Notes: generated by a model not told the origin, from the letters alone. 64,000 bases of DNA from Candidatus Limnocylindrales bacterium (GCA_035526025.1 DATLDE010000012.1:20222-84221), one strand, 5' to 3'; shown: positions 12,680-33,150, counted from the first letter of the stretch. A program made the numbers and translations.

Positions 12680-12790
12680 GAAGGTGAGTATACCATAACA
12701 ATTGACAGTTCACAATTAACAACTTGGGCATTAATTAAGGAGATATATTGTTAAAGGTTAAAAGTTAAATGTCAATTGCTAAACTGCCTC

Positions 12791-12820
12791 TTGACAAAGA
12801 GTTATCCACATTACTACACT
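12791..12820 (+). promoter_or_regulatory. dnaA promoter (TTGACA -35) with a consensus DnaA box TTATCCACA in the spacer (autoregulation site)
   Basis: TTGACA at 12791-12796, TTATCCACA at 12802-12810, TACACT -10-like at 12815-12820; dnaA ATG at 12854. Confidence 0.5.
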
Positions 12821-12853
12821 GGTAAACCTCGCCCGTATTTCTGCTTTTGCATT

Positions 12854-14218
12854 ATGGACATTCATTTAACTACTGTCTGGAACAGCGTATTGGCTGACAT
12901 AAAACCTCAGGTTTCTGATGGTAAATTTGGCACACTTCTTAAGCCAACGGAGTTATTGTCCTTAACTGATGGACTGGCGACTATAAGTGCGCCTTCTCCA
13001 ATAATTATCAATATGTTGAGGGAAAGATTTTTGCCTGAAATCAAAATACTGCTTGAGAAACACTCCAAGATAAAAGATATTTCTATTGTTTTTGTTCCCA
13101 GTGCCTATCAAAAAAAATCTAAAAATACTTCTACAGAGGAGCCTCCGCTTCTGTCAATTGACTCTGAACCAATTGCAAAAGCTCAAACCTCAATTGGTCA
13201 TTTGCCAAGAGTAAGGGCGGATTTTACATTTGAGAACTTTGCTGTATCAGGAAGTAACCAACTGGCTTTTGTGTCAAGCACGACGGTCGCCAAAAACCCT
13301 GGAAAATCGTATAATCCGCTTTTTATCTATGGCCCTGTTGGAGTTGGTAAAACCCATCTTATGAATGCAATAGCCAATGAGGTCTATTCCAATAATCCAA
13401 ATAGGAAAATTATTTATATAACAAGTGAGGAGTTCACAAATGAGGTGGTGGACGCGATCAGACACAATGAAACAGCCCAAATGAAACGACGTTTCCGTTC
13501 AGCACAACTTCTTCTAATAGACGATATACAATTTATAGAGGGTAAGGAAAAGGTTCAGGAAGAGCTTTTTCACACTTTTAATATCTTAATTGATGGTGAA
13601 TCACAAATTGTTCTTTCATCAGACAGGCCGCCTCATGAAATAAAAAAGCTTGAAAAAAGATTATCTTCTCGTTTTGCGGGGGGATTAAGCGTTGATGTTG
13701 GGCCACCTGATTTTGAACTTAAAACTGCAATTATTTTGATAAAAGCGAAAAAATATGGTCATGAAATCCCAATGGATGTAGCAAAGCTCTTGGCTGATAA
13801 CGCACAGGATACGCGTTCGCTTGAAGGACTTTTGCTCAGAATTATAACCCTCTCTACAACAACGGATAAAGAAATTACTTTGGAAATGGCTGAAAGAGCG
13901 ATAGGGGGTGTAACCCAGGAAAGAAGCAAGCATATTCACCCAGATGATGTTATCAATTATGTCTGTGAGTACTACAGAATAAAAACAACACAACTTAAAG
14001 GTCCAAAAAGAGATGCAGCACTTGTAAAAGCCCGGCATGTTGCAATGTACATATTGAAAAACAATCTCAAGCTTACTTTAAAAGATATCGGGGGTTTACT
14101 AGGAGGAAGGGACCACACAACAATTATGCATGGTGTGGAAAAAGTCGAGAAAAGTGTGAATAACAAGGGTGAGATCGTCGAGGATATAATGGGGATTACT
14201 AAATTATTAAGTGGATAA
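12854..14218 (+). CDS. dnaA: Chromosomal replication initiator protein DnaA
   Basis: Start placed at MDIHLTTVWNSVL (typical DnaA N-terminus) rather than the upstream ORF-track start. Carries Walker A GPVGVGKTHL, sensor LLIDDIQF, and the C-terminal DNA-binding helix DHTTIMHGVEKVE. Confidence 0.93.
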   Translation: MDIHLTTVWNSVLADIKPQVSDGKFGTLLKPTELLSLTDGLATISAPSPIIINMLRERFLPEIKILLEKHSKIKDISIVFVPSAYQKKSKNTSTEEPPLLSIDSEPIAKAQTSIGHLPRVRADFTFENFAVSGSNQLAFVSSTTVAKNPGKSYNPLFIYGPVGVGKTHLMNAIANEVYSNNPNRKIIYITSEEFTNEVVDAIRHNETAQMKRRFRSAQLLLIDDIQFIEGKEKVQEELFHTFNILIDGESQIVLSSDRPPHEIKKLEKRLSSRFAGGLSVDVGPPDFELKTAIILIKAKKYGHEIPMDVAKLLADNAQDTRSLEGLLLRIITLSTTTDKEITLEMAERAIGGVTQERSKHIHPDDVINYVCEYYRIKTTQLKGPKRDAALVKARHVAMYILKNNLKLTLKDIGGLLGGRDHTTIMHGVEKVEKSVNNKGEIVEDIMGITKLLSG

Positions 14219-14368
14219 GATCATGATAAAAAAGACATTTAATTTAATCAACATACTGTACCCATTTTTATCAACTTGTTATCCACATATTTCTAAGGTT
14301 AGATTTTCGTGTTTTATTGCTTTTCTCCACTTTTCCCGATACACTACAACAACAACTAAAATTAATAT
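14219..14368. other. Candidate oriC segment: AT-rich dnaA-dnaN intergenic region with DnaA boxes
   Basis: TTATCCACA at 14279-14287, TTATCAACT at 14267-14275, a degenerate box near 14330, and an AT-rich flank, in the classic dnaA-dnaN location. Confidence 0.4.
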
Positions 14369-15475
14369 ATGAAGATAAATATATTAACAATAAACATCCA
14401 GAATAAACTTTCTTTTATTAACCACGCAATATCTCTCAAGAGCCAAATACCTATTCTTCTTAATGTACTTCTTGAAACACAAGATGGAAGTTTAAAAATC
14501 AGCAGTACAGATCTAGAAATAGGAATTGAGGTTTTTGTGCCGGCAACAATTGAAGAAGAGGGGAGTATTACTGTTCCTGCAAAGACATTCATAGAATTAA
14601 TTAGTTCTATTTCAGAGGAAACAATAACACTTGAAACAGACAAAGAAACACTTACAGTTAAAAGTAAAAAAACAAAAAGTCTTTTCCAAACCATAAAAAG
14701 CGATGAATTCCCTAAGTTATATAAAGAAAAAGGAGAGAAATTAGTAACACTCCAGGAAGAAGAGATTCAGAAGGATTTTTCAAGTGTTATATTTGCAGCG
14801 GCTACTGATACAACAAGGCCTGCATTATCTGGAGTTTTGGTAAAAAACGAAGAATCAGGTTTTTTACTAGTGGCAACTGATGGTTATAGACTTTCTCTAA
14901 AACACCATAAAACTCTCAGTAAAAGCACAGCGTCTAATAATATTATTGTCCCGGCAAGAGTTTTTAAAGAATTGATGTCAATCAAAGAAGAAAGTCATGA
15001 TATCGAAGTTTTTACTTCAGTAGAGAGTAGTCAAGTGATATTTTCCCAAGGCAAAACAACTCTTATTGGAAGACTTATTGAGGGAGCATTTCCAAATTAC
15101 GAAAAGATCATACCAACTGATTTTTCAACCAGTGCAGAATTTGACCGCGAAGAAATGCAGAAAGCAGTTAAGATATGCTCCATTTTTGCAAGAGATAGTG
15201 CCAATATAATAAAGCTTTCTTTGAAAAAGGATCATATAGTCGTTTCGTCTCAATCACCATCTATAGGGGAGAACACAGTGACAGTGGAAGGGATATTAAA
15301 AGGTGAAGAAAATGAAATCGCATTCAATGCTCGTTATCTTCAGGATTTATTATCAGGATTATCAAATAATGAGATGGTTTTTGAGATGACAGGACCCCTT
15401 AACCCAGGAGTTTTTAAGATAAAGGATGATATATCATATCTTCATTTGATAATGCCGGTCAGGGTTCAAGGCTGA
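14369..15475 (+). CDS. dnaN: DNA polymerase III beta sliding clamp
   Basis: 368 aa with three-domain clamp architecture, conserved N-terminus MKINIL...LETQDGSLKISSTDLEIGIE, and C-terminal ...MPVRVQG ending at TGA. Confidence 0.9.
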   Translation: MKINILTINIQNKLSFINHAISLKSQIPILLNVLLETQDGSLKISSTDLEIGIEVFVPATIEEEGSITVPAKTFIELISSISEETITLETDKETLTVKSKKTKSLFQTIKSDEFPKLYKEKGEKLVTLQEEEIQKDFSSVIFAAATDTTRPALSGVLVKNEESGFLLVATDGYRLSLKHHKTLSKSTASNNIIVPARVFKELMSIKEESHDIEVFTSVESSQVIFSQGKTTLIGRLIEGAFPNYEKIIPTDFSTSAEFDREEMQKAVKICSIFARDSANIIKLSLKKDHIVVSSQSPSIGENTVTVEGILKGEENEIAFNARYLQDLLSGLSNNEMVFEMTGPLNPGVFKIKDDISYLHLIMPVRVQG

Positions 15476-16080
15476 GCAGGGATATCTTCACCATACTTTT
15501 TCACATACTCCTCAACTTTCATAGGTGAGAAAAGATGATATTCTAAAACCTCATCCCTGCTAGGTTTTGCTATAAAGGCAATACCTAACTCCGGATAAAT
15601 ATATGTTTGAGCTTCAGGGCCATAAAAAATGGAACCTTTAAAAATCCACTTCGCTGGGCCATAACTATCAGTGTAATCTGTTATTTTAACAGGATATCCT
15701 GGACTAATTACAGATCTTTGAAATTGTACATCATGTGTATTCTTTGCATAAATTATATTTGGTCGGGTAGGAACCTTGGACACAAAAGTATATTTAATTG
15801 TTTTGTCTGGAAGAATTTCTTTACTTTGTATACTGGGCATTTCATCCAAAGACTCTTCAATACTTTCTGGTCTGTCCTCGGAAAGTGTTTTATTTGGTAT
15901 AACAAAAGGAGGAGAGTTTTTAGGGGAAGTAGATGGGGTGGGTAGATTCTGTTTTTCTGTGCCTGTGGGACTAAAGATATATGTAAGTGTAGTAATTAAG
16001 AAAATTAAAGGAATAACTGGAATAATAATCCACCTAAATTTAATCAAGTTTTTTTTAAAATTACTAAAAAAAGAATTCAT
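15466..16080 (-). CDS. Hypothetical membrane-anchored, proline-rich protein (last gene of T4SS-like operon)
   Basis: 204 aa; N-terminal TM (IIIPVIPLIFLITTLTYIF), then a P/S-rich linker and a globular domain; no recognised motif. Confidence 0.35.
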   Translation of the reverse strand: MNSFFSNFKKNLIKFRWIIIPVIPLIFLITTLTYIFSPTGTEKQNLPTPSTSPKNSPPFVIPNKTLSEDRPESIEESLDEMPSIQSKEILPDKTIKYTFVSKVPTRPNIIYAKNTHDVQFQRSVISPGYPVKITDYTDSYGPAKWIFKGSIFYGPEAQTYIYPELGIAFIAKPSRDEVLEYHLFSPMKVEEYVKKYGEDIPAQP

Positions 16081-16084
16081 ATTA

Positions 16085-16816
16085 TCAACAACCAGGTTGC
16101 CAAACTGGTAAATAAGGATCTAGTTTTACATCAAGGTGGAAGTGATTCTCATGTCCCTTTTGCTGCATCATGACCATTCCTGATGACCTACCAGAGCCCT
16201 TAGGATCATTTACAAATTCAAGCACATCATTATTAACCGGCTGGTCATTGTACCAAATATTAACGACTTGATCTGTGGCTGCAAAAATCTGACCCAGCTC
16301 AACTGTCGCCGGGCGATTATAAGGACCAAAATTTCCAGTCATGTCTGCAACTCTATCCGCACCGTCTGTCGTTGCAACTAGATCAACAGCTCGTCCCCAT
16401 TTATGTGATGAGTGAGGAGGGTTAGGTCCGTTAAGATCATTTATAAATAAATAACCCCCCGAATGTTTTTGCTTCCATGTTTTTGCTACAGAATAAAGTA
16501 CTGTAATTAATTCCTTCGATCCATATAGGCAATCACCACTAGTGATTAATCTATATGATCCATCGTCAGATTCTGGCATTTTACAGTAACCATCATCACG
16601 GCAAGCAAGCCCGGGGGGAGTTATAAGCCCATTTGGCCCGATTGGGCCAACAGCTGTCTGGCATTCTGGTGGAAGGACTGGTTTTTGGTCACCTATATTG
16701 CCTATTTTTGTAATCACACAATTACTTTTTGCTGTTTGAGCATAAACAATGATGGGTAATACAAGAAAAATGAATAACGCACTAGATGCAATGTAGAAAT
16801 TAATCCTGATTTTCAT
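16085..16816 (-). CDS. Secreted LAS-family zinc metallopeptidase (peptidase M15 / VanY-like D-Ala-D-Ala carboxypeptidase fold), putative cell-wall hydrolase
   Basis: Signal peptide, then HSSHKWGRAVDL (SxHxxGxAxD motif) and ENHFHLDV (HxH motif), characteristic of M15/LAS peptidases. Confidence 0.6.
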   Translation of the reverse strand: MKIRINFYIASSALFIFLVLPIIVYAQTAKSNCVITKIGNIGDQKPVLPPECQTAVGPIGPNGLITPPGLACRDDGYCKMPESDDGSYRLITSGDCLYGSKELITVLYSVAKTWKQKHSGGYLFINDLNGPNPPHSSHKWGRAVDLVATTDGADRVADMTGNFGPYNRPATVELGQIFAATDQVVNIWYNDQPVNNDVLEFVNDPKGSGRSSGMVMMQQKGHENHFHLDVKLDPYLPVWQPGC

Positions 16817-16837
16817 AAATTTATTTAAGTATAAAGC

Positions 16838-17404
16838 CTAACATCCCTCAGCCAAAGGACTAAAAGTATAGTTCTTATCCCTTAATTGACCCAATACATT
16901 TCGGCTTAAATAAAACACCACTGGGAGATCACAAATTCCCTGTTGGCTTAAGCCTTGTGACTTTAACCACGCAGTGGCATCTGCTTTTGCCTGAGCGATA
17001 TCAACAGTAATGATCTCAGCCTGAAACTGATCTGCAGCATTTGTGTAATCAATAATAATTGTTGGAGATCTGTAGAGAACGCCCGAAACTTGTCCTGCTG
17101 GGAGAAGTGACAATAACTTTTCTCTAGCTTCTGTATCGTTTTGTGATAGGGTAGTTTTGTTATTTAGCTTATCCAGCATCTTGCGCGCTGAGTCCTGGTC
17201 ATATTGTATGGGAGGGTTGGTTTTTGCTTCAATTGGTAGGGGTGTTGGCTCAATGGAGGTGGCAGATTCAGGGATGGGGGTAGGAGTAGCTATTTCTTCC
17301 GTCTTTTCTCTTGGAGAAAGCGCAAAGAAAATAACAGCAACCGTAATTATTATTAATATAATTGCAAAAATAACAATGATTACACGTTCTTTTTTAATTG
17401 TCAT
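16838..17404 (-). CDS. Hypothetical bitopic membrane protein (position and size compatible with a VirB8/PrgL-like T4SS component)
   Basis: 188 aa with an N-terminal TM and ~150-aa extracytoplasmic domain, immediately downstream of the VirB1-like hydrolase. The VirB8-like assignment is inference from gene order only. Confidence 0.3.
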   Translation of the reverse strand: MTIKKERVIIVIFAIILIIITVAVIFFALSPREKTEEIATPTPIPESATSIEPTPLPIEAKTNPPIQYDQDSARKMLDKLNNKTTLSQNDTEAREKLLSLLPAGQVSGVLYRSPTIIIDYTNAADQFQAEIITVDIAQAKADATAWLKSQGLSQQGICDLPVVFYLSRNVLGQLRDKNYTFSPLAEGC

Positions 17405-17416
17405 ACTAGTAATACT

Positions 17417-18931
17417 TTAACATGAATATTTTCCCCAGACACTTCTGGCACTTGCCCAATAGCGGAAATTACAACCAAGCAGCTTCATATTGTAATCAAT
17501 TGCCTTTGTTGTCTGTATTTCCCAATTTAAATCTCCCCGGTCATATATCCCATTTTTTCCGGGCTCAGTTGGGGGTTGGCCGGAAGGCTTGCTGCTACCC
17601 ATTTGATATAATCCCCAGGCACCTGCACAATCAAGTGAGCATTGGACTCCAACTGGTGGTGCAAACGCATTGGGGCTAAAACCACTCTCAACAGGGACGA
17701 TCATATCAAACCAGATATTGACAAATTCAGGGTTAGGCTCCTTCGACTGTAGGTGTTTGTAAAGATTGTCTTTGCTGAAATTACACTTGGGATCGCCATA
17801 ATTACCAAGAGGATTCTGCTCAGGGTATTTTGAAAAATTATATTTTCCACCACAATCATCATTTGGTGCTGGGGGCACATAGCCGTCTGAAATAGGCCCT
17901 CCGCCACCCCCTCCGTTTGTAGGGGCAGCATACGGAGTTACTGTTCCCTCAGCTTGGTTAAAAATAACTAAGTCGTTTTTAACTGCGCGAAGTTTTATGG
18001 CCAGTATTGAATTGACATTGCTCAGGATAGCGCCGGGCGAGGCCTGAAAATCTTTTAAGTTCCAAGTAGCAGTTTTTGTTACGGGATCAAATTGTGCGGA
18101 TGGACTTGAATCAACATACTCAGTCCCTTCCGGAATTTTATCAGTAATAACAATATCTATTGCCTGCTCAGGGTATGCAACTGTAATTTCATAGGGAAGT
18201 TCCTGGCCGTTTTGCGCTTCTATAGGACCTGTTTTGGTTATGGTCAGTTTGGGCGCATTGGGATCAGCCTCGCTTGGTCCTCCCATTACGACTACAATTA
18301 AGAACAATATTATTCCAAGCGGAATCATAACTTGACCGACAGGACTGCTTACAATAGCGCCTGCAATTGCAATTTTTTTAAGAGTCTTATGCTTGTCAAG
18401 GAATTGTTTTGCTTTTAAAGCAACCTGGGCTTCAGGTCCTGCTGCCTTTGCAGCTTTATTCACAACCCTATTCACGCTTTTTTTAAGCATTGCCTTGGTT
18501 CGGCTTTCTTCTCCTCCTGCTCGAGGATTTTTTGCAGCTCCCTTGGCGGCACCTTTAGCACCCCCTTTGGCTGCTCCCTGCATTCCCCCTTTGGCTGCTC
18601 CCGCAGCTCCACCGACTGCGGCGCCCCCAGCAGCGCCTGCACCAGCACCTAAGGCTCCGCCTATAGCCGTTCCCACGCCAGGCAATATTGCAGTGCCTAC
18701 CGCTGCGCCTGCTTTTCCACCAAGCTGAGCTCCTTTTTGTGCCCCTTTTACAGCACCCTTTGCTCCTTGAATTGCAGCTTGTTTGCCTGCTTCTTTCGCA
18801 GCTCCGCTTGCAGCACCTTTCGCAGCATTTCCCATACGACTTTTACTGCGTCCTCCTCGCTTGCTTGTAGAGCCTGCGCCTTGTTGGGGATACTGGTCTT
18901 CTTGGGGATCTTGAGAATCTGCTTCACTCAT
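17417..18931 (-). CDS. VirB1/PrgK-like lytic transglycosylase (SLT domain) with long Ala/Gly/Lys-rich disordered cytoplasmic N-terminus and one TM
   Basis: C-terminal VPVESGFSPNAF ... AGAWGLYQM matches the SLT catalytic motif (ES-x-FNP-x-A ... AxGLMQ). The N-terminal ~170 aa are GAKGAAKGA-type low complexity, followed by TM IPLGIILFLIVVVMGG. Confidence 0.6.
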   Translation of the reverse strand: MSEADSQDPQEDQYPQQGAGSTSKRGGRSKSRMGNAAKGAASGAAKEAGKQAAIQGAKGAVKGAQKGAQLGGKAGAAVGTAILPGVGTAIGGALGAGAGAAGGAAVGGAAGAAKGGMQGAAKGGAKGAAKGAAKNPRAGGEESRTKAMLKKSVNRVVNKAAKAAGPEAQVALKAKQFLDKHKTLKKIAIAGAIVSSPVGQVMIPLGIILFLIVVVMGGPSEADPNAPKLTITKTGPIEAQNGQELPYEITVAYPEQAIDIVITDKIPEGTEYVDSSPSAQFDPVTKTATWNLKDFQASPGAILSNVNSILAIKLRAVKNDLVIFNQAEGTVTPYAAPTNGGGGGGPISDGYVPPAPNDDCGGKYNFSKYPEQNPLGNYGDPKCNFSKDNLYKHLQSKEPNPEFVNIWFDMIVPVESGFSPNAFAPPVGVQCSLDCAGAWGLYQMGSSKPSGQPPTEPGKNGIYDRGDLNWEIQTTKAIDYNMKLLGCNFRYWASARSVWGKYSC

Positions 18932-18950
18932 GCTTTAATACTAACAAATA

Positions 18951-21065
18951 TTAAGATTCCGGTAAAACCGATGGACTGGGAGAGGGCGCAGGGGATATCG
19001 GCGACTGTGGTGATGGCGTAGGGCTCGGCTCTGCTGATGGGACTGGGGAAGAGCTGGGGGACGTATCCATAGGTTGAGGCGTGGTCTCAATGCCCGGGGC
19101 TTGTGGCTCAATCGCTGTTGGGCTTGGTGAGATTGTGGTATTGGATAAGATCTCATTCATGTTGGTGCTGATTGCATTGGAGGTAGGAGCTGCTTCTTCG
19201 GCTTTTGTCTGGCTCGCATTTGCAGCAGCGTCTTCCTGTCTCTTCAATAATTCCATAGGATTGGAGGTGATTAATTCATGTTCAAAAGGAGCTGCGAAAA
19301 CCTTCATTGCTACGTGATTTTGTCCTGCAAAGAATAAGCCCTCACCAACGTCAGAGGACAATAAAAGGGCTTTTTCCCCCTCTGATAGATAGAATGTGTC
19401 TGCGATCATATCCACTTCAGCTGTTCCCTGCTTCAAAAGGATCTGAATAGACGAATTGGTTAACACAGCCTTGCCGTATTCATTTTTGAGAAAGTCTTCA
19501 ACGTCTTGAGTAGCAGTGGTCATTCCTAGATAATATTTTCTAGCTCTTTTTGCAATTGAATAAACAAATGACGCTGAGTCCTGGTACTTCATCATGTACC
19601 ATCCCTCGTCCAGTATGAGAATTCGCTTTTTCAAAGTCTTTTTGACTTTTGTCCACACAAAATCGAGAACTATGTGCATGGCAACAGGGCGAAGTTCTTC
19701 TTCAAGATTACGTATCGAAAAAACAGTTAGGGGATTGTTGATCTCAAAATTAGATTGCTGGTTGAAAATACCAGCTGCTGATCCTTTAATGAATTTTTCA
19801 AGCCTGAAAGCCAGATCTTTTGAGGGCTGTGTCTCCATTCCAAGAAGGGTTTTGTACAAATCCTCCATCAGGGGGGGCTGCCTTTTTTGGGTTGCAGGGT
19901 CGGTTGTGATTCCTTTTTGGCGGTAACACTCAATAAGTGCACGATCCAGGATAGCGTCATGTTCTGCATCAAGATCCCCTGTGATAAGCTTTAACAAACC
20001 GTGAAGGGATAGGATTTTAAGTCCCAATTCATTTTCACCCTCTTCAAATACATCAGAAAGATCGAATGGGTTTATCTTTATGTCAGAATTAGATGAGAAC
20101 TCGACTACTTCTCCACCAAGCGCCGGGACCATGGTTCCATATTCTCCCTCAGGATCAATTACGATTACCTCAGCGCCAAGCATAAATTGTCTGGCAATTT
20201 CAAGCTTGATGCAGTATGATTTTCCGGCACCTGATTTACCCAGAACCACCTCGTTTGCGTTTTCTAGCGAGAATCGGTCAAAAATAATGAGTGATCCATT
20301 CTGTTGATTTACCCCGTACATCACTCCTTTATTTTGAGTAAGAATTGCTGATGTGAATGGAAAAGTTGACGCAAGGGATGACGTGTCCATGTTTCGGGTA
20401 ACATACAGCCTGTCTTGTCCCATGGGAAGGGTTGATTTAAATCCTTCCTCCATTTGAAGCGTTGCTGTTTTTCCAGCAAGCAGAAGAGACGCCAGGGTAG
20501 TTTGGAGCTCTTTGGTAGTCTGTTGAAGCTCTGCCAGGTCTGGTGCTGAAACAGTGATATAGAATCCGAATTGGAAAAATCTTTCAATTCCCTTTGCGAG
20601 TTCTTCCTGCAGTCCCAAGGCATCTTCAAGTGCTGCTTCAACCGTTGGATCAGTGACTTTTCCAGCCTCTGCGTCCGATGACAAAGTTGCCTGCATCTCA
20701 CCAATTTTTCGCTTCAAATCGGCCAGCACGTCTGAGCTTGAGGTCGGATAGCAAAACATTGATATATCTAGGGTATGATCATAATCAATAATTGGCTGAA
20801 GCCAACCAGGGGATACATACCGTGGATAGCCTGAGATAAAAAGCGTTGAGTAGAACGCTTCCCCGACTCTTATAAATCTAAAATCAACCTCAACAGAAGA
20901 GGGTGCGATAATATCTATTATTGAGGTCAGTCCTTTTTCGGTTGCTTCAATGCTCTTGCTTACAGGAGGTTGAGCCTGTGCGCCTGCTGTTTTTTTGCTT
21001 TTTACAGGATTTGCTGAAGCAGTTGGTGCTGCTTTGGGAGATTTATTCAAAAAAGGGAGTTTCAT
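18951..21065 (-). CDS. virB4: VirB4/TrbE/CagE-family type IV secretion ATPase with Pro/Ser-rich C-terminal tail
   Basis: Walker A VVLGKSGAGKSY, Walker B ILILDEGW, and conserved TQ...DF (ATQDVEDFL) motifs. 704 aa, of which the C-terminal ~90 aa are SPxP low complexity. Confidence 0.85.
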   Translation of the reverse strand: MKLPFLNKSPKAAPTASANPVKSKKTAGAQAQPPVSKSIEATEKGLTSIIDIIAPSSVEVDFRFIRVGEAFYSTLFISGYPRYVSPGWLQPIIDYDHTLDISMFCYPTSSSDVLADLKRKIGEMQATLSSDAEAGKVTDPTVEAALEDALGLQEELAKGIERFFQFGFYITVSAPDLAELQQTTKELQTTLASLLLAGKTATLQMEEGFKSTLPMGQDRLYVTRNMDTSSLASTFPFTSAILTQNKGVMYGVNQQNGSLIIFDRFSLENANEVVLGKSGAGKSYCIKLEIARQFMLGAEVIVIDPEGEYGTMVPALGGEVVEFSSNSDIKINPFDLSDVFEEGENELGLKILSLHGLLKLITGDLDAEHDAILDRALIECYRQKGITTDPATQKRQPPLMEDLYKTLLGMETQPSKDLAFRLEKFIKGSAAGIFNQQSNFEINNPLTVFSIRNLEEELRPVAMHIVLDFVWTKVKKTLKKRILILDEGWYMMKYQDSASFVYSIAKRARKYYLGMTTATQDVEDFLKNEYGKAVLTNSSIQILLKQGTAEVDMIADTFYLSEGEKALLLSSDVGEGLFFAGQNHVAMKVFAAPFEHELITSNPMELLKRQEDAAANASQTKAEEAAPTSNAISTNMNEILSNTTISPSPTAIEPQAPGIETTPQPMDTSPSSSPVPSAEPSPTPSPQSPISPAPSPSPSVLPES

Positions 21066-21733
21066 TTCTTGTCTCCTCCTGTAACTATTGATGCGCCAAC
21101 AGCGCTTCCAAGTTGTTCAACCTCAATATTGGTCCCATTGTTGTAAATGTCGTAATAAAGCTTTATCAAGTCATCCCGTTCAAGAATTCTTGCTGATACG
21201 GCAAATTTTTGAAGCTGTCCTAGCACTTGCTCTGCTTTAGACTGCAGATTTTTAGCCGCACCTTCAGGAAGAGCAGTGGTCGTTGCTTTTTTGCTTTTCT
21301 GAGTAGTCGCCTTAGCTCCGGACACTCCCATTTCAAGAGATGAAAAGGGAATGACGATATAAAAAGATTTACTCAAAACAACGTTAACTGTGACCATTTC
21401 CTGAACAAAGTCCCGATAATAGCTGATATATGAGCTAAGTTGCGGATTTTTGCTGTTTTTTATAATTTCATCAAGATCCTTAAGGTAATTTGAGATGTCA
21501 ATTCTTTTATTTCTTATTAAGATTTGAATAGGAAAAGAAAGTGAATTAAGAAGAGATGCATAAGAAAAGATTCTTGAATCCTGCTCTCTTTTGGAAAGAA
21601 GCGCGAAGTTACTGGCTGTAATCTCAATTATCAAACATGCTGCCCCGCCCTGTAAAACCACCATGTTATCAACAAAATCTGTTATTTCAGTAAATTTCTG
21701 AGTTGAAGCGTGAATTTTTTGGGCAGCACTCAT
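21062..21733 (-). CDS. Hypothetical cytoplasmic protein in T4SS-like operon
   Basis: 223 aa, no TM, translationally coupled to virB4 (4-nt overlap). No recognisable motif. Confidence 0.4.
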   Translation of the reverse strand: MSAAQKIHASTQKFTEITDFVDNMVVLQGGAACLIIEITASNFALLSKREQDSRIFSYASLLNSLSFPIQILIRNKRIDISNYLKDLDEIIKNSKNPQLSSYISYYRDFVQEMVTVNVVLSKSFYIVIPFSSLEMGVSGAKATTQKSKKATTTALPEGAAKNLQSKAEQVLGQLQKFAVSARILERDDLIKLYYDIYNNGTNIEVEQLGSAVGASIVTGGDKK

Positions 21734-21734
21734 T

Positions 21735-22961
21735 TTAACTAAATAATTCCTTTCTTAATTCTTCTCTTTTGTCATAAGAAATGATTTCAATAGGAAGCAT
21801 GATTTGGCCATTTGCCGTGATGTTGATCTCATCAAATGTGTGGAGCTTTTTAGGATCCTCAAGAGAGATTGTATAAGTGCCAGAGGATAGTGGAGTGGCT
21901 GATGCGAAATTTCCAAGCGTGTTGGTCTTAAAAGCCCTTACGGGATTGTTATCTTTGTCTTTTATCTCGACCAAGATGTTTGGAAGCACGTTGTTTCTTG
22001 AATCTTTTACCATCCCTGAAACAACATTTGGAGTGTCAGATACAAGAATGCCCATTTTTTTATTCAATTCCTTTGGCACACTTCTAACATGGCCAACAGC
22101 TTTGGGTATTTCAGCATCAGGCTTTCTAATCACCTGTGTAATTACAGGGGCTTTCTGGGTGAGCAATTGTGATTTTAATTTAACTATTTCTTGCTCAAGC
22201 ATCTGTTTTTGAGAATGAATTTGTTGAACTTGAGCCTCAAGATCTAATGTTTTCTGGTGAATTGCAGCGAGTGCTTTCGGGTCATGTTGGGCAGACTCGT
22301 CTTTTTTTGCAAATTCAAGCTGTTTTTTAAGCGCTTCCTCTTTTGCCAACAGCACTTGTGGGGATGGGATTTGTGGCGAGGGATTTATTTGATTTGGGCT
22401 TATTGGACTTATCGGATGTGGTGGAGTCGGCTGCAGGGGTGTAGGGGTCAGGCCTGGTGCGGAAGTAGAGAGTGATTTGAGAAATGCAGCTTCTCTTGCA
22501 TCCTGAGGATTATGTATAGATTTTGCGGCGCTGGTGATTAAGATCTTTTGAAGTGCCAAGCCGCGGCTATTGATCATTTGTTGTTGAGGTGTAGATCCGG
22601 GGTGCTCAGTTGCAGGTTTTACAGCTTTTTGCGCATGGAAGCTTGAAAAACTGAATTTATTATCATTTTTATGATAAACATATTGATTTGGTGAAAGCAG
22701 CGCTTTAAAAAAATTTCCGGCCATTACATCAATTGGTCTTCCATCAATTGGAAGGAATGCTGCGATCGCACCGCTTGCGCCTAGAAATGGAATTAAAAAG
22801 GCTTTTATAATTACGCCAAGCAATCCCTTAATGGGCAAGTAGTAAGCTATAAATGCTCCAATTACGCCTACCGCAACATAACCAAATTGTTTAACCGTCA
22901 TAGCTCCAATGAGCTTGAACTGAAATCCTGTTACGTTTTGTGGAATAGGGTGTTGATCCAT
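21735..22961 (-). CDS. PrgI/VirB3-like two-TM N-domain fused to Pro/Gln-rich coiled-coil linker and C-terminal beta-sandwich (CarboxypepD_reg-like) domain
   Basis: N-terminal FQFKLIGAMTVKQFGYVAVGVI ... two TM resembles the PrgI family (VirB3 analog) found upstream of VirB4 in monoderm T4SS. C-terminal SGMVKDSRNNVLPNILVEI ... TYTISL is transthyretin/CarboxypepD_reg-like. Confidence 0.45.
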   Translation of the reverse strand: MDQHPIPQNVTGFQFKLIGAMTVKQFGYVAVGVIGAFIAYYLPIKGLLGVIIKAFLIPFLGASGAIAAFLPIDGRPIDVMAGNFFKALLSPNQYVYHKNDNKFSFSSFHAQKAVKPATEHPGSTPQQQMINSRGLALQKILITSAAKSIHNPQDAREAAFLKSLSTSAPGLTPTPLQPTPPHPISPISPNQINPSPQIPSPQVLLAKEEALKKQLEFAKKDESAQHDPKALAAIHQKTLDLEAQVQQIHSQKQMLEQEIVKLKSQLLTQKAPVITQVIRKPDAEIPKAVGHVRSVPKELNKKMGILVSDTPNVVSGMVKDSRNNVLPNILVEIKDKDNNPVRAFKTNTLGNFASATPLSSGTYTISLEDPKKLHTFDEINITANGQIMLPIEIISYDKREELRKELFS

Positions 22962-23065
22962 GGCGTGCTAAAAAAGTGTATAACGTGAAAAATAGCAATG
23001 CAACTCACACAAAGTAGGTCAAACGAATCATGTTTTGAGGCTAGCGTGTGAAAACTCAGAGGTGA

Positions 23066-23488
23066 TTATTTGCAACCGCCAGTGTTAATCTGGTTGATGT
23101 CTGTAATGCAATCTTTGGAGTTGGTGATATATCCTATGAAGTATATAATTGCAAAAGAAGACATGATAACAATTGTGCCTATTATGGCGTACGTCATAAT
23201 TTGTCTAGCCGCCTGGACTTGCTTTGGGTCCCCACCTGAGGTGACCAATTTAATTCCTGAGTAGATAATAAGTACCAGCGCAACAGCGCCAGCAAACATA
23301 AGAAATGCAGTAACTACGTTTTGAAATATAACAGGCACGCAGCGGAGGCTCGCAACCTCCGTAGTTTTGCCTGAGGTTGTTATTTTGTCGGTGCAGCCTG
23401 ACCAGTCTTTGAACTGCGCAGCAGCAGGCTGTGGTATTGCTGCGGAAATTAAAAAAGCTATAGCAAATGCTAAAAATGTATTTTTCAT
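23066..23488 (-). CDS. Putative T4SS pilin (VirB2/TrbC-like): signal peptide + two hydrophobic helices
   Basis: 140 aa; cleavable signal (AAIPQPAAA-QF), ~40-aa spacer, then helix-loop(GGDPKQVQAARQ)-helix topology typical of VirB2 pilins; first gene of the operon. Confidence 0.4.
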   Translation of the reverse strand: MKNTFLAFAIAFLISAAIPQPAAAQFKDWSGCTDKITTSGKTTEVASLRCVPVIFQNVVTAFLMFAGAVALVLIIYSGIKLVTSGGDPKQVQAARQIMTYAIIGTIVIMSSFAIIYFIGYITNSKDCITDINQINTGGCK

Positions 23489-23529: not shown

Positions 23530-25743
23530 TTATGGGGATACTTTGTATATTTTAGTATTTTGACTTTGGTAAATAATTTTACTTAACTTCTGAAATTTTT
23601 GCTCAGACAAGGCAGGGTATTTTTGATACTCTAGTGTTCCTATGAAAACGTATTCTACGTCGTACTTTTTAAGTAAAGCCTGAGCCTCTTTTAAATCTAA
23701 TGTTTCATAAAGAGTTTTAATCTCAGCAATTCTGGGGGAGGGGATATCGTAAGTTCCCCGCCAAAGCCATTCGTGAACAGTCCACCCAAGAACAGTCGGC
23801 AGGCCTGTGTTTGCAGATACTCTTGCATAATCAGTGTATGAATCGCCTTGTGCTTCAAGAATTATCGGTTGCTTGGCAACATTTTTTCTTAACCATTCTA
23901 TTGCTTTAAAATCATCCGGATACAGATTTTTAAGATACTTTGTGCCATCAAGCCCCGCAGGTTTCTTAAATTTACCCTTCTCGTCTTTTTGATCAAGCCC
24001 GTAATATGAGTTAATTGCAAGGTATGGATATGTCATGACAAGAGAGATTAGACCAATAACCAATAACAGATAGCTAATAGTTAATAACTTTTTTCCTAGA
24101 TTTATTTTCTTAAGCTTAACACTTGATAGTATTCTGACAATTATATATCCGCATGAAACAGAGAGCATAATGAAGGACTGAAATACAAGCTTGAACATGG
24201 TATTGGCGCGGTAGTGGGCCGGGTAAATATCTTTAAGGTAAATAAATTCAGGCAGGATAATGAGAAATGTCGAAAGCAATATCAGAAGTAAAACAAATGT
24301 ATCTGTTGGGAGAAGTTTTTTTGTGCGATTGATAAAAACCAGAAAAGATATAACAAAAAAATAGAAAAAACCATAGAGTATTAACAGCTGCCACCAGGGT
24401 GAATGTTGACAAAAGTTTTGTTCAAATAAAAATGGACCTATTTTACCGATTTTGGTTAAGAATTCCGGCGCACATAAAATTCCCATGCCAGAGGTAAACG
24501 GTTTGAAAAAGTAATTATAGGGAAGTGAAAATAGCGCAAGGCTTACTGAAGTGATAAAAACTGAAAGAAAAAATACTACTAGATTTTTGTGATAAATCGT
24601 AAATAGAACAAGTATAGATAGAAGCAGGTAAATTCCTCCGTCCCAGGCATTGGTCATATACATAATAGCAAGAAGAAAACCGAGCAGGAGCAGGCCGTAG
24701 ATTCGTTGGTCGAAATATGATAATAATCCCATTCTTGCGTTTTTCTGAACCTGAGAAGAATCAGATTTGGGTTTGGAAATCTCGGAGTTAATAAAGAGCG
24801 ATAGAAGAACAGCTATAGTTAAGAGAACAAATGGGATGTCAAGTACATGTCCATGAAGATCGGCAACTACCCAGGAGTATATTGGAAATTCATGTATCGT
24901 ATTGTGGATAAAACGCGTTGCATTCGGGTACCAATATGAATTCGGGAAAGTAACCGGGAGAAAAGGAAGATCCCAGAAGGGTACTGGTTTGTCATTTGTG
25001 TAGGGTTTGAAAAAACCATAGACAATATGGAGATTTCCTGCAAAAGTTACAAGAAGGGCCGTCAAGAGTCCTGAAACAAATCTTTTTGCTTCTGAGATTT
25101 TTTCACTTTTTTTCATAAAGCTATAGATATTGGCACCTAGTGAAAATGTTTGGGTAAAGCAAAAGGCAAAAATGGTTGAAAGCATTAAATTAAATGTAAT
25201 ATTTGGTGAAAGCGCGCTAATTCTGGTCAAGACCGCAGTTACTAAGTGGCCGAAATAATAATAATTAATAAAAAGCGGTGTCAGCCACATGTCTTTTGGT
25301 GGGAAATAGTCGCTTCTGAGAATCGAGTTTATAAATCCATAATCCATGTATTTCTCAAGACCGTGAATGTCCGGATTAAAAGAGTGAATGTATGCCCACA
25401 GGAATAAGGTCGCCAGGAATAGTAGTTCTTCAAATACAAATATTAAGAAGTTCTGTTTGATAACCAAAAATAAATCTCTTTTACCTGGAGTCAATCCGTA
25501 TATCAAGCTCGCAATTAGAAAAAACATCAGCCAGGAGTTAATTTCGGTAAAGGGTAGGATATGAAGAATTCCAAGTAAAAGAATTACATAAGTCAGGATG
25601 CATAGGCTTAATAATTTGGAAAAAATATATCCTTTGTCAAAGAAGTTTTTAAACAGCAGAAAGGTTAAAGGCAAAAATCCTGTCCCTAGTATAAGGATTG
25701 CCAACCACCATTGTAGAATTGAGCAAATATCAGACGGAAGCAT
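23530..25743 (-). CDS. Chlor_Arch_YYY-domain (DUF2298-like) polytopic membrane protein, putative GT-C-type glycosyltransferase
   Basis: 737 aa, >15 TM, contains the hallmark YYYxG motif (FINYYYFGHL) and a C-terminal soluble domain. Confidence 0.55.
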   Translation of the reverse strand: MLPSDICSILQWWLAILILGTGFLPLTFLLFKNFFDKGYIFSKLLSLCILTYVILLLGILHILPFTEINSWLMFFLIASLIYGLTPGKRDLFLVIKQNFLIFVFEELLFLATLFLWAYIHSFNPDIHGLEKYMDYGFINSILRSDYFPPKDMWLTPLFINYYYFGHLVTAVLTRISALSPNITFNLMLSTIFAFCFTQTFSLGANIYSFMKKSEKISEAKRFVSGLLTALLVTFAGNLHIVYGFFKPYTNDKPVPFWDLPFLPVTFPNSYWYPNATRFIHNTIHEFPIYSWVVADLHGHVLDIPFVLLTIAVLLSLFINSEISKPKSDSSQVQKNARMGLLSYFDQRIYGLLLLGFLLAIMYMTNAWDGGIYLLLSILVLFTIYHKNLVVFFLSVFITSVSLALFSLPYNYFFKPFTSGMGILCAPEFLTKIGKIGPFLFEQNFCQHSPWWQLLILYGFFYFFVISFLVFINRTKKLLPTDTFVLLLILLSTFLIILPEFIYLKDIYPAHYRANTMFKLVFQSFIMLSVSCGYIIVRILSSVKLKKINLGKKLLTISYLLLVIGLISLVMTYPYLAINSYYGLDQKDEKGKFKKPAGLDGTKYLKNLYPDDFKAIEWLRKNVAKQPIILEAQGDSYTDYARVSANTGLPTVLGWTVHEWLWRGTYDIPSPRIAEIKTLYETLDLKEAQALLKKYDVEYVFIGTLEYQKYPALSEQKFQKLSKIIYQSQNTKIYKVSP

Positions 25744-26291
25744 TATTGTTTATCATTGAATATCATCTTGATTTTGGAAATTGCAAAGATATTCTCTGAA
25801 ATAACTTTATCAATCTGATCCTGATTAAGCCAAAAAAATTTTGTTTTTACGTTGTATTTTGCAACGTGCTTGAGCAGAGACAGGTCGTCATCAACATAAA
25901 TATTGAGCCTAAGTCTCTTAATAACATCATTTTTGAATTCATGAGGCTGTTGATTGCCGAAATTGAAATACAGTTCATCAAATACCTTGTCCAGATCATA
26001 ACGTTTGACGAGCTTTAGAGTTCTTTTTTCTAAAAATTTAAAACGGCTTGAGATAAGATAAAGCTTATTGTTTTTTTTGGGGATGTTTCTAAGAAATTCA
26101 AGATTCTCTTTGATAGCAGGACGAAGAAGCGGAAAATGGCTGATTCTTCTAAATACTTGTTCAGGATAGGCAGGTATTCTGTAAAGCAAGCCACCATTGT
26201 CCTTTTTTTTATATAATTTATCAATTAATTTGGGCGAGACAAGAGGGGGATAGTCAATAAAAACTTTATCTAAGTCAAAGCCAATATTCAT
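25743..26291 (-). CDS. HAD-superfamily hydrolase-like protein
   Basis: N-terminal FDLDKVF (DxDx[TV] motif I), ISSR (motif II) and YVDDD (motif IV-like). Confidence 0.45.
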   Translation of the reverse strand: MNIGFDLDKVFIDYPPLVSPKLIDKLYKKKDNGGLLYRIPAYPEQVFRRISHFPLLRPAIKENLEFLRNIPKKNNKLYLISSRFKFLEKRTLKLVKRYDLDKVFDELYFNFGNQQPHEFKNDVIKRLRLNIYVDDDLSLLKHVAKYNVKTKFFWLNQDQIDKVISENIFAISKIKMIFNDKQ

Positions 26292-26296
26292 AGTTA

Positions 26297-27340
26297 TTAA
26301 AATCGTGAAATTAGATTTAGTATCTTGAAATTCCAGCCAACTCTGTGTGTATTGCCGATTTTTCCATGAACACTTTTTCTATTCTGCTTGTACCAGAGAT
26401 AACTCTCAAGAAACAGATCCTGATTTGATTTTTTAGGCTGCCAGTGCAAAAGTTTTTTTGCTTTTTCAACTGAAACATACGAATCAACAGGCATAGTTTT
26501 GTAATGCCAGGCCGCAATTGGTGAAAGGCGTAGGACCTCAAGCGCTTGAAGAATGAACTGGGATGGCAAGGTAGGAAGCCCAGTGATTTTTGATTTGGAC
26601 TTAGTTTGCTTAATTACATATCCCAAGTCAGATTTCCATGTACCGAATTTTTCAGCTCCTATGTTGAAAATCTCGCCATTTACACGTGTTGTTAGTGCTT
26701 TTTCTATGGCATCAGCAATATCTGTAACTGCCAGTAGTTGATATTTATTATTTCCATCTCCAAGTATAAAAACCCGTTTGTCAGTATAGATTGCCTCAAA
26801 CCACAACTCAAAAACCCCTAGTCTTTCAGTTCCCAGGAAAGTTTTTGGACGGATGATATTTACTTGCAGGCCCTTTTTCTGATACTCCATGCATAGCTTT
26901 TCTCCCTCAATTTTTGATATACCATAGTGTCCGATTGGGTCAAGGGGTGATGTTTCGGTTTCTGGGAGGTGTTTGGGGACACCATAGACAGCTGTACTGG
27001 AGATGAAAACAAGACGTTTTATCTTATTTTTTAAGGCAGATGATAATATGTTTCTTGTGCCATCAATATTTACTGAAAATATTACTTTTTTATCAACTTG
27101 GATGGGAAGAGCGGCCGCTGCGTGAACTATATAATCCTGGCCAATCAAGGCTTTGTTAATTATTTTGGAATCTCTTATGTCACCTAGTACAACTTTTACC
27201 TTGCCAATCAAATCTTCCGCGTCTAGTTCTGCTAGGTCAAAAAGTGTAACAACGTACTTTTCTTTTAAAAACTTACGGGCTAAATGAACGCCCAAAAATC
27301 CCGTTCCGCCTGTAATGAGAACCTTTTTTGTCATGTGCAT
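26297..27340 (-). CDS. NAD-dependent epimerase/dehydratase (extended SDR)
   Basis: KKVLITGGTGFLGVHLARKF Rossmann motif and catalytic YGISK (YxxxK). Confidence 0.8.
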   Translation of the reverse strand: MHMTKKVLITGGTGFLGVHLARKFLKEKYVVTLFDLAELDAEDLIGKVKVVLGDIRDSKIINKALIGQDYIVHAAAALPIQVDKKVIFSVNIDGTRNILSSALKNKIKRLVFISSTAVYGVPKHLPETETSPLDPIGHYGISKIEGEKLCMEYQKKGLQVNIIRPKTFLGTERLGVFELWFEAIYTDKRVFILGDGNNKYQLLAVTDIADAIEKALTTRVNGEIFNIGAEKFGTWKSDLGYVIKQTKSKSKITGLPTLPSQFILQALEVLRLSPIAAWHYKTMPVDSYVSVEKAKKLLHWQPKKSNQDLFLESYLWYKQNRKSVHGKIGNTHRVGWNFKILNLISRF

Positions 27341-27401
27341 TCATTGTACTATTTTGGGGATTGCTGAAGCAAGAGAGGCATCTCTGAAATTAATTTAAAA
27401 A

Positions 27402-29096: not shown

Positions 29097-29794
29097 TATT
29101 GTGCTCTTCTTAATTTATACAATCCTAAAATGTTCCGCAAGGCGATATCGAAAATCTTATTGGATTTGTAAACTTGGGTGCTGCCATTGAGTCGCTCTCT
29201 GTGGTTGATGGGGAGTTCATGGACTGCTATATTTTTCTTTACACACATACCGATAAACCCCCACCAAAAGCCTTCTTTTAGAAAACGTAAGTAGGGAATG
29301 TGGGGATGAACCGTTGCTTTTTTAAATAACACAAAAGGGGCACTGGGATCATGGATGTTATTGGGAAAGAGAAAAGTAAATAATTGTTTAAATGCCTTCG
29401 AAAATAACTTTCGCTGAAGTGGGTCAGCTCTATTTGTACGGTGCCCAATCAGAATTGGCGCTTTATGTTTTTTATCCCAAAATTTCGTGAAATCCTTAGG
29501 GTCACACTGACCGTCAGAATCAATACAGAGAATATACTCAGACTTCGCAGCTACAATTCCATCAATAACCGCGCCACCATATCCTCTGCGCTTTTGCTTC
29601 TGGCTAAGTATAATAGGGAATTTTTTACCTAATTTCTTAAGTAACTCTTTTGTTCCGTCCGTTGATCCGTCCTCACAAATTACAAAAGAAAAAGAAAGTT
29701 TTTGCTGCTTAAGCATTTGTTGCCATTCCTTAAGGACTGTTTCAATCGTATCTTTTTCATTATAAACCGGTAAGATGATATTTAATTTATACAT
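29096..29794 (-). CDS. GT2 polyprenol-phosphate glycosyltransferase (DPM1/ArnC/GtrB-like)
   Basis: ILPVYNEKDTIETVL ... CEDGSTDGT ... IDSDGQCDP (GT2 DxD-containing motifs); 232 aa. Confidence 0.8.
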   Translation of the reverse strand: MYKLNIILPVYNEKDTIETVLKEWQQMLKQQKLSFSFVICEDGSTDGTKELLKKLGKKFPIILSQKQKRRGYGGAVIDGIVAAKSEYILCIDSDGQCDPKDFTKFWDKKHKAPILIGHRTNRADPLQRKLFSKAFKQLFTFLFPNNIHDPSAPFVLFKKATVHPHIPYLRFLKEGFWWGFIGMCVKKNIAVHELPINHRERLNGSTQVYKSNKIFDIALRNILGLYKLRRAQ

Positions 29795-29797
29795 GTC

Positions 29798-30841: not shown

Positions 30842-30857
30842 ATCAGATCATTATAGA

Positions 30858-33130: not shown

Positions 33131-33150
33131 CTTACTACAAATTGTAGCAT

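Follow-up and report, generated by a model that had tools for sequence, protein, structure and literature searches.

There are few molecular handles on the way in which Patescibacteria, ultrasmall and metabolically dependent bacteria, exploit their hosts, and their type IV secretion systems (T4SSs) are among them. According to Wang et al. 2023 (PMC10633639), Southlakia epibionticum, the only species tested, requires an unusual, Gram-positive-like T4SS (SEML1_0006-0019) for epibiotic growth; the pilins of this system are essential, and neither a coupling protein nor a relaxase is recognisable in it. The survey of Quiñonero-Coronel et al. 2025 (PMC12102498) described a monophyletic Patescibacteria clade of VirB4 that is related to the FATA class of mating-pair formation systems (MPF-FATA), with TrsD, PrgI and VirB2-like pilins abundant beside virB4 and with very few relaxases. 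In the same survey VirB6 was scarce in Microgenomatia, VirB8 was undetectable in most Patescibacteria, and the T4SS was located near dnaA/dnaN in Microgenomatia and Paceibacteria; a 2025 review (PMC12857230) restates this picture. Here we compare with these systems an operon of eight minus-strand genes (15466-23488) in a 64,000-nucleotide stretch of DNA (the window), whose contig is publicly labelled Candidatus Limnocylindrales. The operon very likely encodes a vertically inherited, chromosomal Patescibacteria T4SS that was derived from monoderm MPF-FATA conjugation machinery and that would serve host contact rather than conjugation.

Layout of the locus

The window was analysed by open reading frame (ORF) listing and by profile searches against Pfam and NCBIfam, and the operon was compared with 53 related loci (L numbers below) from a scan of species-representative genomes. 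All eight co-directional genes given in a preliminary description of this DNA were recovered by the ORF listing with coordinates identical to those given, each with an ATG start; from the pilin end they encode proteins of 140, 408, 223, 704, 504, 188, 243 and 204 amino acids (aa). The genes had been called mostly overlapping, which they are not: the sole overlap within the operon is one of 4 bp between trsD and virB4. The packing is tight, with intergenic gaps (read from the dnaN end) of 4, 21, 12, 19, -4, 1 and 104 bp. Five of the ORFs are recognisable, by profile or motif, as T4SS parts, namely the pilin, a PrgI/VirB3-like protein, TrsD, VirB4 and a hydrolase that combines a DUF11 domain with a lysozyme/SLT-like domain. 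Consensus scans for promoters and terminators were uninformative, as they returned 51 and 18 sites compared to 37.5 and 12.6 expected by chance.

VirB4 and its detached N-terminal domain

The VirB4 ATPase (704 aa; 18951-21065) scored 381.5 bits against the NCBIfam family conju_CD1110 (NF045971; cut-off 325), has intact Walker A (GKSGAGKS at aa 276) and Walker B (ILILDE at aa 482) motifs and matched Pfam P-loop_TraG with an E value of 1.2e-24. Its best solved structure was the C-terminal domain of Thermoanaerobacter VirB4 (4ag5, E 1e-45), and together these results confirmed that a monoderm-type T4SS core is arranged around VirB4, as initially proposed. The C-terminal tail (~aa 601-704; 18951-19260) is a Pro/Ser/Thr-rich region of low complexity. 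At the other end, NF045971 was covered only from position 178 (178-734 of 752), so that the N-terminal part of VirB4 is missing from the 704-aa ORF.

The adjacent 223-aa protein (21062-21733), which had been left as an unknown cytoplasmic protein, can now be assigned from profile matches and concatenation with VirB4 as TrsD, the split-off N-terminal domain of VirB4. It has no membrane helix and matched TrsD/TraD (NF041427) with an E value of 4.7e-5 and 23 bits, which does not reach the curated cut-off of 200, as well as positions 101-233 of VirB4_plasma (NF045975), the VirB4 of Mycoplasma integrative and conjugative elements (ICEs), with an E value of 8.8e-8. When TrsD and VirB4 were joined, a single alignment to NF045975 was obtained over positions 102-893 (290 bits, compared to 250.7 for VirB4 alone), and another to TIGR00929 over positions 6-726. 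In the Microgenomates locus L043 (9404-11902) the two are naturally fused in a single ORF of 832 aa. As the joined proteins align to full-length profiles and L043 encodes them as one, VirB4 is split in the window. The trsD stop overlaps the virB4 start by the 4 bp given above, and the two genes are probably translationally coupled. A profile of TrsD had no match among PDB sequences; that TrsD and VirB4 may act together as a single split VirB4 is a lead that the locus offers.

The pilin and the PrgI/VirB3 fusion

The preliminary description had also named a VirB2-like pilin, and this was upheld. The 140-aa protein (23066-23488) matched PF18895 (T4SS_pilin) with 36.3 bits against a gathering cut-off of 26.6, and the NCBIfam Mbov_0395 pilin-like family with an E value of 1.6e-4. 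It has a signal peptide and two hydrophobic helices linked by an SGGDPK loop, and four conserved Cys residues lie in exposed N- and C-terminal segments. The Cys residues and the loop were kept across the orthologue alignment, whereas the exposed termini that contain them differ between genomes. The window has a single pilin gene compared to arrays of at least three in related loci. Two further genes accompany these arrays in relatives and are absent from the window. In L017, a TraX homologue (PF05857, the F-pilin acetylase family; 7280-7990, minus strand) is encoded between the pilins and PrgI. In L012 (5000-6328), with counterparts in L003, L020 and L036, a protein of ~442 aa with an OmpR-type winged-helix DNA-binding domain is encoded beside the pilin arrays.

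The 408-aa protein (21735-22961) is a PrgI/VirB3-like fusion, as originally suggested. Its PrgI part (aa 5-96), a two-helix hairpin, matched PF12666 with 31.3 bits (cut-off 27). A Pro-rich linker connects this part to a coiled coil (~aa 204-272), and aa 314-383 form a beta-sandwich similar to CarboxypepD_reg, with a PF13620 score of 31.2 bits that is slightly below the cut-off of 32.3. The fusion is conserved, since 32 of 33 orthologues matched PrgI and 31 of 33 matched CarboxypepD_reg, and the retention of this extension across Microgenomatia is a second lead. No match among PDB sequences was obtained with a profile of the PrgI N-terminus.

Cell-wall hydrolases

Two proteins of the operon are predicted to act on peptidoglycan. 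The 504-aa protein (17417-18931) occupies the VirB1 position and begins with a Gly/Ala/Lys-rich region (aa 1-190; 18362-18931) that is predicted to be cytoplasmic and contains GAAKGA-like repeats. This is followed by a membrane helix (~aa 195-225), a DUF11 Ig-like domain (aa 229-299; 28.2 bits compared to a cut-off of 24.6), a poly-Gly linker and a C-terminal lysozyme/SLT-like domain (~aa 350-504). It had been called a VirB1-like SLT lytic transglycosylase. The window's own protein gave no Pfam SLT match at E <= 1; the label holds at superfamily level only, as membership in the lysozyme-like superfamily was supported by the family profile and by the orthologues. The C-terminal domain of the family (~150 aa) has invariant Glu-Ser, GAWGLYQM and DRGDxxW motifs, and its profile, searched against the PDB, matched C-type lysozymes over the catalytic ES...GxxQ region with an E value of 1.2e-3. 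Among 25 orthologues, Pfam SLT was matched by six (best E 2e-5), Lys by three and Transglycosylas by two. We therefore assign the protein, from its sequence family, as a membrane-anchored enzyme of the lysozyme-like superfamily, with the activity of either a lytic transglycosylase or a hydrolase. The orthologues are between 310 and 1217 aa long, and the position is modular in relatives: in L012 the orthologue has an additional Peptidase_M15_4 domain, in L040 and L043 the protein found there carries M23 instead, and in L052 a CHAP protein is adjacent, which is the pattern of Gram-positive VirB1-type enzymes.

The second enzyme (243 aa; 16085-16816) had been described as a hydrolase of the M15 family. 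The motifs of a LAS metallopeptidase are present, as SxHxxGxAxD (H138...D145) and HxH (H225, H227) are invariant in six orthologues and a signal peptide precedes them; the profile matches are weak and favour Peptidase_M74/MepA (E 0.013) over M15_4 (E 0.11). The best PDB match of its profile was MepA (1tzp, E 0.11), located over the His/Asp motif, and an hhalign comparison with the genuine M15_4 domain of L012 gave a probability of only 5.6%. The M15 label thus holds at superfamily level only, and the safe name, read from its motifs, is a secreted LAS-family (M15/M74-like) zinc peptidase. The gene was found in five of the 53 related loci.

Small bitopic proteins

The remaining two ORFs encode bitopic proteins of 188 aa (16838-17404) and 204 aa (15466-16080), for which AlphaFold2 gave confident models (domain pLDDT, the predicted local distance difference test, above 90). 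In both, a Pro-rich linker joins an N-terminal membrane helix to a C-terminal domain. In the 188-aa protein this domain is of the alpha/beta type, measures ~120 aa and contains the invariant C158 and C188; in the 204-aa protein it is beta-rich (aa 84-196), and the linker is disordered. The 188-aa protein had been regarded as VirB8-sized and possibly VirB8-like; its predicted fold is not of the VirB8/NTF2 type, and neither predicted fold resembles VirB8, TraM or PrgL, which is consistent with the VirB8 results of the survey (PMC12102498). No PDB match was found for the modelled 188-aa fold. At 50% identity, the members of its family in a library of 1.84 billion proteins fall into 577 clusters, and tandem duplicates are frequent. 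Two possible relationships were rejected, as hhalign linked the 188-aa and 204-aa families neither to each other, as paralogues, nor to the bitopic protein that takes their place in more distant Microgenomatia. Both proteins are lineage-specific accessories, and their constant placement between the hydrolase and dnaN is a third lead for work on the system outside Saccharimonadia.

Components not found in the window

All window ORFs that encode 230 aa or more were searched for VirD4, VirB6 and relaxases, apart from those of the ribosomal-protein operon; for the latter, and for the 10 kb that adjoin the window on its left, precomputed Pfam matches were used. No VirD4, VirB6, relaxase, type IV coupling protein (T4CP) or integrase was detected in the 64-kb window, nor any relaxase or T4CP in the 10 kb to its left; for VirD4, VirB6 and relaxases this agrees with what had been noted for the window at the outset. 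No polytopic protein is encoded in the operon. The other sizeable ORFs of the window encode YidC, Wzy-like, DUF4012 and DUF2298 proteins, three PMT_2 glycosyltransferases, epimerases, EF-G, EF-Tu, PGK and others. The 737-aa DUF2298/chlor_Arch_YYY membrane protein encoded upstream of the pilin was considered as a substitute for VirB6 and rejected, being a member of a glycosyltransferase cluster that is syntenic only in the three nearest relatives.

A better VirB6 candidate was found outside the window. In most Levybacteria relatives a polytopic family of ~460-700 aa is encoded 5-8 kb upstream of virB4 (L012:44-1951, L003:17-1969, L020:14-2125, L043:2047-3432 and ~10 more loci). It has no match in Pfam or NCBIfam, and it aligned to the TrbL/VirB6-like protein of a Pontibacillus plasmid with an hhalign probability of 95%, which makes it a candidate for a divergent Microgenomatia VirB6. 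The window has no homologue of this family; genes that lie upstream in relatives, encoding an OmpR-type regulator, a protein of ~1000 aa and the polytopic family of ~635 aa, are absent from it.

An alternative explanation is that the locus forms an adhesion organelle only, with a VirB2 pilus that attaches to the host and moves no substrate. The failure to find the channel parts VirB6 and VirB8 and the substrate receptor VirD4 at the locus would fit such an organelle, as would the variable Cys-containing pilin termini, the divergent pilin arrays of relatives and the TraX pilin-acetylase homologue of one of them. However, Patescibacteria already own type IV pili for adhesion (PMC12857230), the candidate VirB6-like protein in most Levybacteria relatives suggests a channel, and an adhesin-only VirB4 system has no precedent, so that we regard this explanation as improbable. 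About as doubtful is a minimal architecture, in which a working Levybacteria T4SS would do without VirB6, VirB8 and a coupling protein, the PrgI fusion and the 188-aa and 204-aa families would replace them, and macromolecules might be drawn from the host; if true, it would be a new minimal T4SS architecture.

Position beside the origin and inheritance

The operon is convergent with dnaN (14369-15475, plus strand), which the 3' end of the 204-aa gene overlaps by 10 bp, and dnaN is preceded by dnaA (12776-14218, plus strand). Four matches to the DnaA box TTATCCACA (at most one mismatch; at 14134, 14155, 14210 and 14279) lie at 14134-14287, in the 3' end of dnaA and the dnaA-dnaN spacer; they are context and not part of the machine. 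The cumulative GC skew has its minimum at ~12-14 kb. From these sequence features the DnaA-box cluster is the probable oriC, ~1.2 kb from the end of the operon. All of 15466-39945 (~24 kb) is coded on the minus strand, with the exception of a small plus-strand ORF at 34950-35723; with the origin at ~12-14 kb and GC skew positive rightward, this block, including the T4SS, is transcribed head-on to replication. In all related loci, too, the T4SS lies head-on to dnaN.

In approximately 35 of the 53 related loci the order is pilin(s), PrgI fusion, TrsD, VirB4, hydrolase and bitopic proteins, then convergent dnaN and dnaA, and VirB4 identity among syntenic relatives ranges from 47 to 90%. The G+C content at third codon positions (GC3) of the operon is 0.23-0.42, equal to that of the rest of the window. 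A local GC peak of 0.44-0.47 at 17-21 kb is limited to codon positions 1 and 2 and is caused by the Ala/Gly/Pro-rich low complexity of the hydrolase N-terminus and the VirB4 tail. With a gene order shared by ~35 genomes and a GC3 no different from that elsewhere in the window, the operon reads as an old, vertically inherited chromosomal feature beside the origin and not as a mobile element. The chromosomal placement claimed in the preliminary description was thus corroborated by the abutting dnaN, the DnaA boxes, the GC-skew minimum, synteny and GC3.

The opposite explanation, that an ICE or plasmid remnant, or a functional part of one, was inserted beside dnaN, draws on the descent of all recognisable parts from conjugation machinery and on the nearest plasmid VirB4 homologues, which belong to conjugative or large plasmids of Bacillota and Actinomycetota. 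It is contradicted by the shared position and order in ~35 genomes with 47-90% VirB4 identity, by a GC3 equal to that of flanking genes, and by the intact genes with conserved catalytic motifs. The window also has no integrase, relaxase or T4CP, and tRNA and Rfam scans revealed no tRNA gene and no Rfam RNA family match in it. We consider such an insertion very improbable, and recent horizontal transfer was rejected in view of the unchanged GC3, the deep synteny and the low-complexity source of the GC rise.

The source genome is assigned, from its gene content and relatives, to Levybacteria (Microgenomatia). Many of the related loci are labelled Levyibacteriota, Microgenomates, Roizmanbacteria, Parcubacteria or Patescibacteria group, and many others carry labels from outside the candidate phyla radiation (CPR). 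Loci L002, L004, L008, L009, L042 and others with near-identical architecture are labelled Gammaproteobacteria, Acidiferrales, Sulfotelmatobacter or Nanoarchaeia. Such non-CPR labels, including that of the present contig, look wrong, because gene content and relatives point to Levybacteria/Microgenomatia.

Proposed function

No relaxase, coupling protein or hallmark of a mobile element was found, so that host interaction is the most likely use of the system and conjugation is not; the doubt about conjugation voiced in the preliminary description was therefore shared by our analysis and coincides with PMC12102498 and PMC10633639. The role in secretion or host interaction is inferred by analogy with Saccharibacteria. 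The order of assembly is likewise inferred, as are the substrate, the direction in which it moves and the PrgI extension's topology. VirB4, split into TrsD as N-terminal domain and the ATPase body, would dock at the membrane via the PrgI/VirB3 hairpin. It would power extraction of the Sec-exported VirB2-like pilin and its polymerisation into a pilus or conduit, while the lysozyme/SLT-like hydrolase and the LAS peptidase may locally open the cell's own peptidoglycan, or that of the host. The 188-aa and 204-aa proteins would be extracytoplasmic accessories specific to the lineage. The machine as a whole may be used for contact-dependent host interaction, e.g. protein export or uptake of host macromolecules.

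Uptake could also be the specific purpose. A machine similar to ComB of Helicobacter or to archaeal Ced would import DNA, RNA or nucleotides from the host, which the cell itself is unable to make; such a machine would be a sub-case of the preferred host-contact function and does not contradict it. The gene content fits a ComB-type logic, as neither a T4CP nor a relaxase was found beside the pilin, VirB3, VirB4 and hydrolase genes. In addition, VirB4 weakly matched the Ced import ATPases CedB (E 5e-12, 45 bits compared to a cut-off of 700) and CedD, and a 2026 preprint (10.64898/2026.06.21.733656) describes tubular structures that may be T4SS pili where a cultured Minisyncoccota parasite, one that acquires RNA from its host, contacts the host cell. 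However, the CedB and CedD scores are far below those of the conjugative VirB4 families, and the Pfam and NCBIfam searches of the window proteins showed no match to ComB6-10 or to the Ced membrane components CedA, CedA1 and CedA2. Moreover, deletion of comEC in S. epibionticum abolished competence and left viability intact, whereas the T4SS is essential (PMC12857230), which argues that natural transformation is not an essential route for nucleotides in that species. Overall, a dedicated uptake machine is possible but unlikely.

Several points weigh against the host-contact T4SS that we favour. VirB6 and VirB8 are normally required for the membrane channel of a T4SS, and since neither was found here, the machine is either incomplete in the window or built with unrecognised parts. 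The hydrolase assignments of the window's own two proteins fall under curated thresholds. Substrate, effector and direction of transport cannot be read from the sequence, and the proposed function is extrapolated from Saccharimonadia, a different class. Finally, as the search covered the window and the 10 kb to its left, a distant VirD4, VirB6 or relaxase is possible in this genome; VirD4 homologues are present in 2,918 Patescibacteria genomes and lie near virB4 in only 148 (PMC12102498).

Neighbouring genes

A surface-glycosylation cluster (23530-34959, minus strand) lies upstream of the pilin and encodes a DUF2298/chlor_Arch_YYY protein, three PMT_2 proteins, one GT2 protein and two NAD-dependent epimerases. 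This neighbourhood was common only to the three closest relatives (L001, L039 and L051). As the gap to the pilin gene is just 41 bp, co-transcription of the pilin with the cluster is possible. The lone plus-strand ORF at 34950-35723 (257 aa) shares 10 bp with the start of the PMT_2 gene next to it and has a GC content of 45.6% (64% at first codon positions) compared to ~37% in its neighbours; it has no NCBIfam match and may be a foreign gene or a spurious ORF. Two tandem paralogues (45448-47700 and 47715-49949, minus strand) of ~750 aa, with an N-terminal membrane anchor and large parts near-identical, had no Pfam or NCBIfam match; they probably represent large surface proteins. A ribosomal-protein/SecY operon occupies the right end of the window. 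On its left side, the adjoining 10 kb encode an aminoacyl-tRNA synthetase and an alpha-2-macroglobulin, the latter listed as a 1710-aa alpha-2-macroglobulin-like protein with PT-HINT/intein-type domains located ~1-6 kb from the window.

Comparison with known systems

Compared to conjugative MPF-FATA systems (pCF10, pIP501, pGO1 and CTn2), the locus shares a membrane-anchored VirB1-type hydrolase downstream of VirB4, its own copy scoring under the Pfam thresholds. A relaxase and a VirD4/TcpA-type coupling protein were not found in the 64 kb and the adjoining 10 kb, a VirB6-like polytopic channel protein of the PrgH/TraL type was not found in the window, and none of the bitopic proteins of the operon has the VirB8-like NTF2 fold of PrgL, TraM or TraH. 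The closest conjugative subclass is the TrsD-containing pGO1/pSK41/pIP501 type, with the gene order trsC-D-E-(F)-G-H or traC-D-E-(F)-G-H. The VirB3-like protein, TrsD, VirB4, the membrane-anchored hydrolase and a small bitopic protein are common to both, and the 188-aa protein is the positional counterpart of TraH, although its predicted fold is not VirB8-like. The pGO1/pSK41/pIP501 type has in addition a relaxase, a VirD4-type coupling protein, the VirB6-like TraL and the VirB8-like TraH and TraM, none of which was found in the window, and it is without a pilin, whereas the window encodes a VirB2-like one.

The nearest non-CPR, plasmid-borne VirB4s in a plasmid collection were all from monoderms, with ~37% identity. 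Among the closest was that of the Pontibacillus sp. ALD_SL1 megaplasmid (NZ_CP062975.1, 351.8-361.4 kb; L054), a CD1110-type VirB4 with 37% identity. The gene order there is like that of the window, with two PF18895 pilins, a PrgI/TraL-like protein of 116 aa, a TrsD-like protein of 274 aa (hhalign probability 99.9%), VirB4 and a large hydrolase. In contrast to the window, a 779-aa TrbL/VirB6-like protein is encoded between the pilins and VirB3, the PrgI is short and without extension, the hydrolase is of the NlpC/P60 plus M23 type and not lysozyme-like, and the cluster lies beside flagellar genes on a Bacillota megaplasmid, typed as non-mobilizable, rather than at a chromosomal origin. This cluster indicates that pilin-bearing systems with a split VirB4 are not confined to Patescibacteria, which bears on the origin of the pilin. 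Mycoplasma ICEs, with the pilin-like Mbov_0395 and the VirB4 Mbov_0397, are similar in that the window's pilin matched Mbov_0395 and its TrsD and VirB4 align end to end with the Mbov_0397 profile, both well under the equivalog cut-offs (40 and 590 bits). These ICEs differ in being mobile, with their own DNA-processing genes and a single-polypeptide VirB4. The matches show that the pairing of a pilin-like protein with VirB4 occurs in monoderm MPF-FATA systems.

The locus also differs from the published Patescibacteria systems. The window has one pilin, compared to six in S. epibionticum and three or more in most Levybacteria relatives, and its cluster is without VirB6, whereas S. epibionticum has a VirB6 gene that is essential there. 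The extension of ~300 aa (coiled coil and beta-sandwich) on PrgI is unlike the S. epibionticum/Patescibacteria reference, and among the loci examined the 188-aa and 204-aa families were restricted to Levybacteria-type loci and not seen in more distant Microgenomatia loci. The locus adds no new principle; it is a clean, compact Levybacteria example, with a single pilin and no VirB6, VirB8 or VirD4 found nearby. It remains of interest for its lineage-specific parts and because channel components are apparently absent.

The locus nevertheless matches the Patescibacteria-clade T4SS. Its VirB4 is MPF-FATA-related and belongs with that clade by similarity rather than by a tree, given the NF045971 score above cut-off and patescibacterial-type relatives with 47-90% identity. 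TrsD is adjacent to virB4, PrgI/VirB3 and a VirB2-like pilin are encoded near it and hydrolases downstream of it, no relaxase or coupling protein was found in the cluster, and the location is chromosomal by dnaN, near dnaA/dnaN as in Microgenomatia. The interpretation given in the preliminary description thus re-derives, as our comparison supports, a published result: the locus is a typical Patescibacteria-clade T4SS of the kind already described in 2023-2025, and not a new system.

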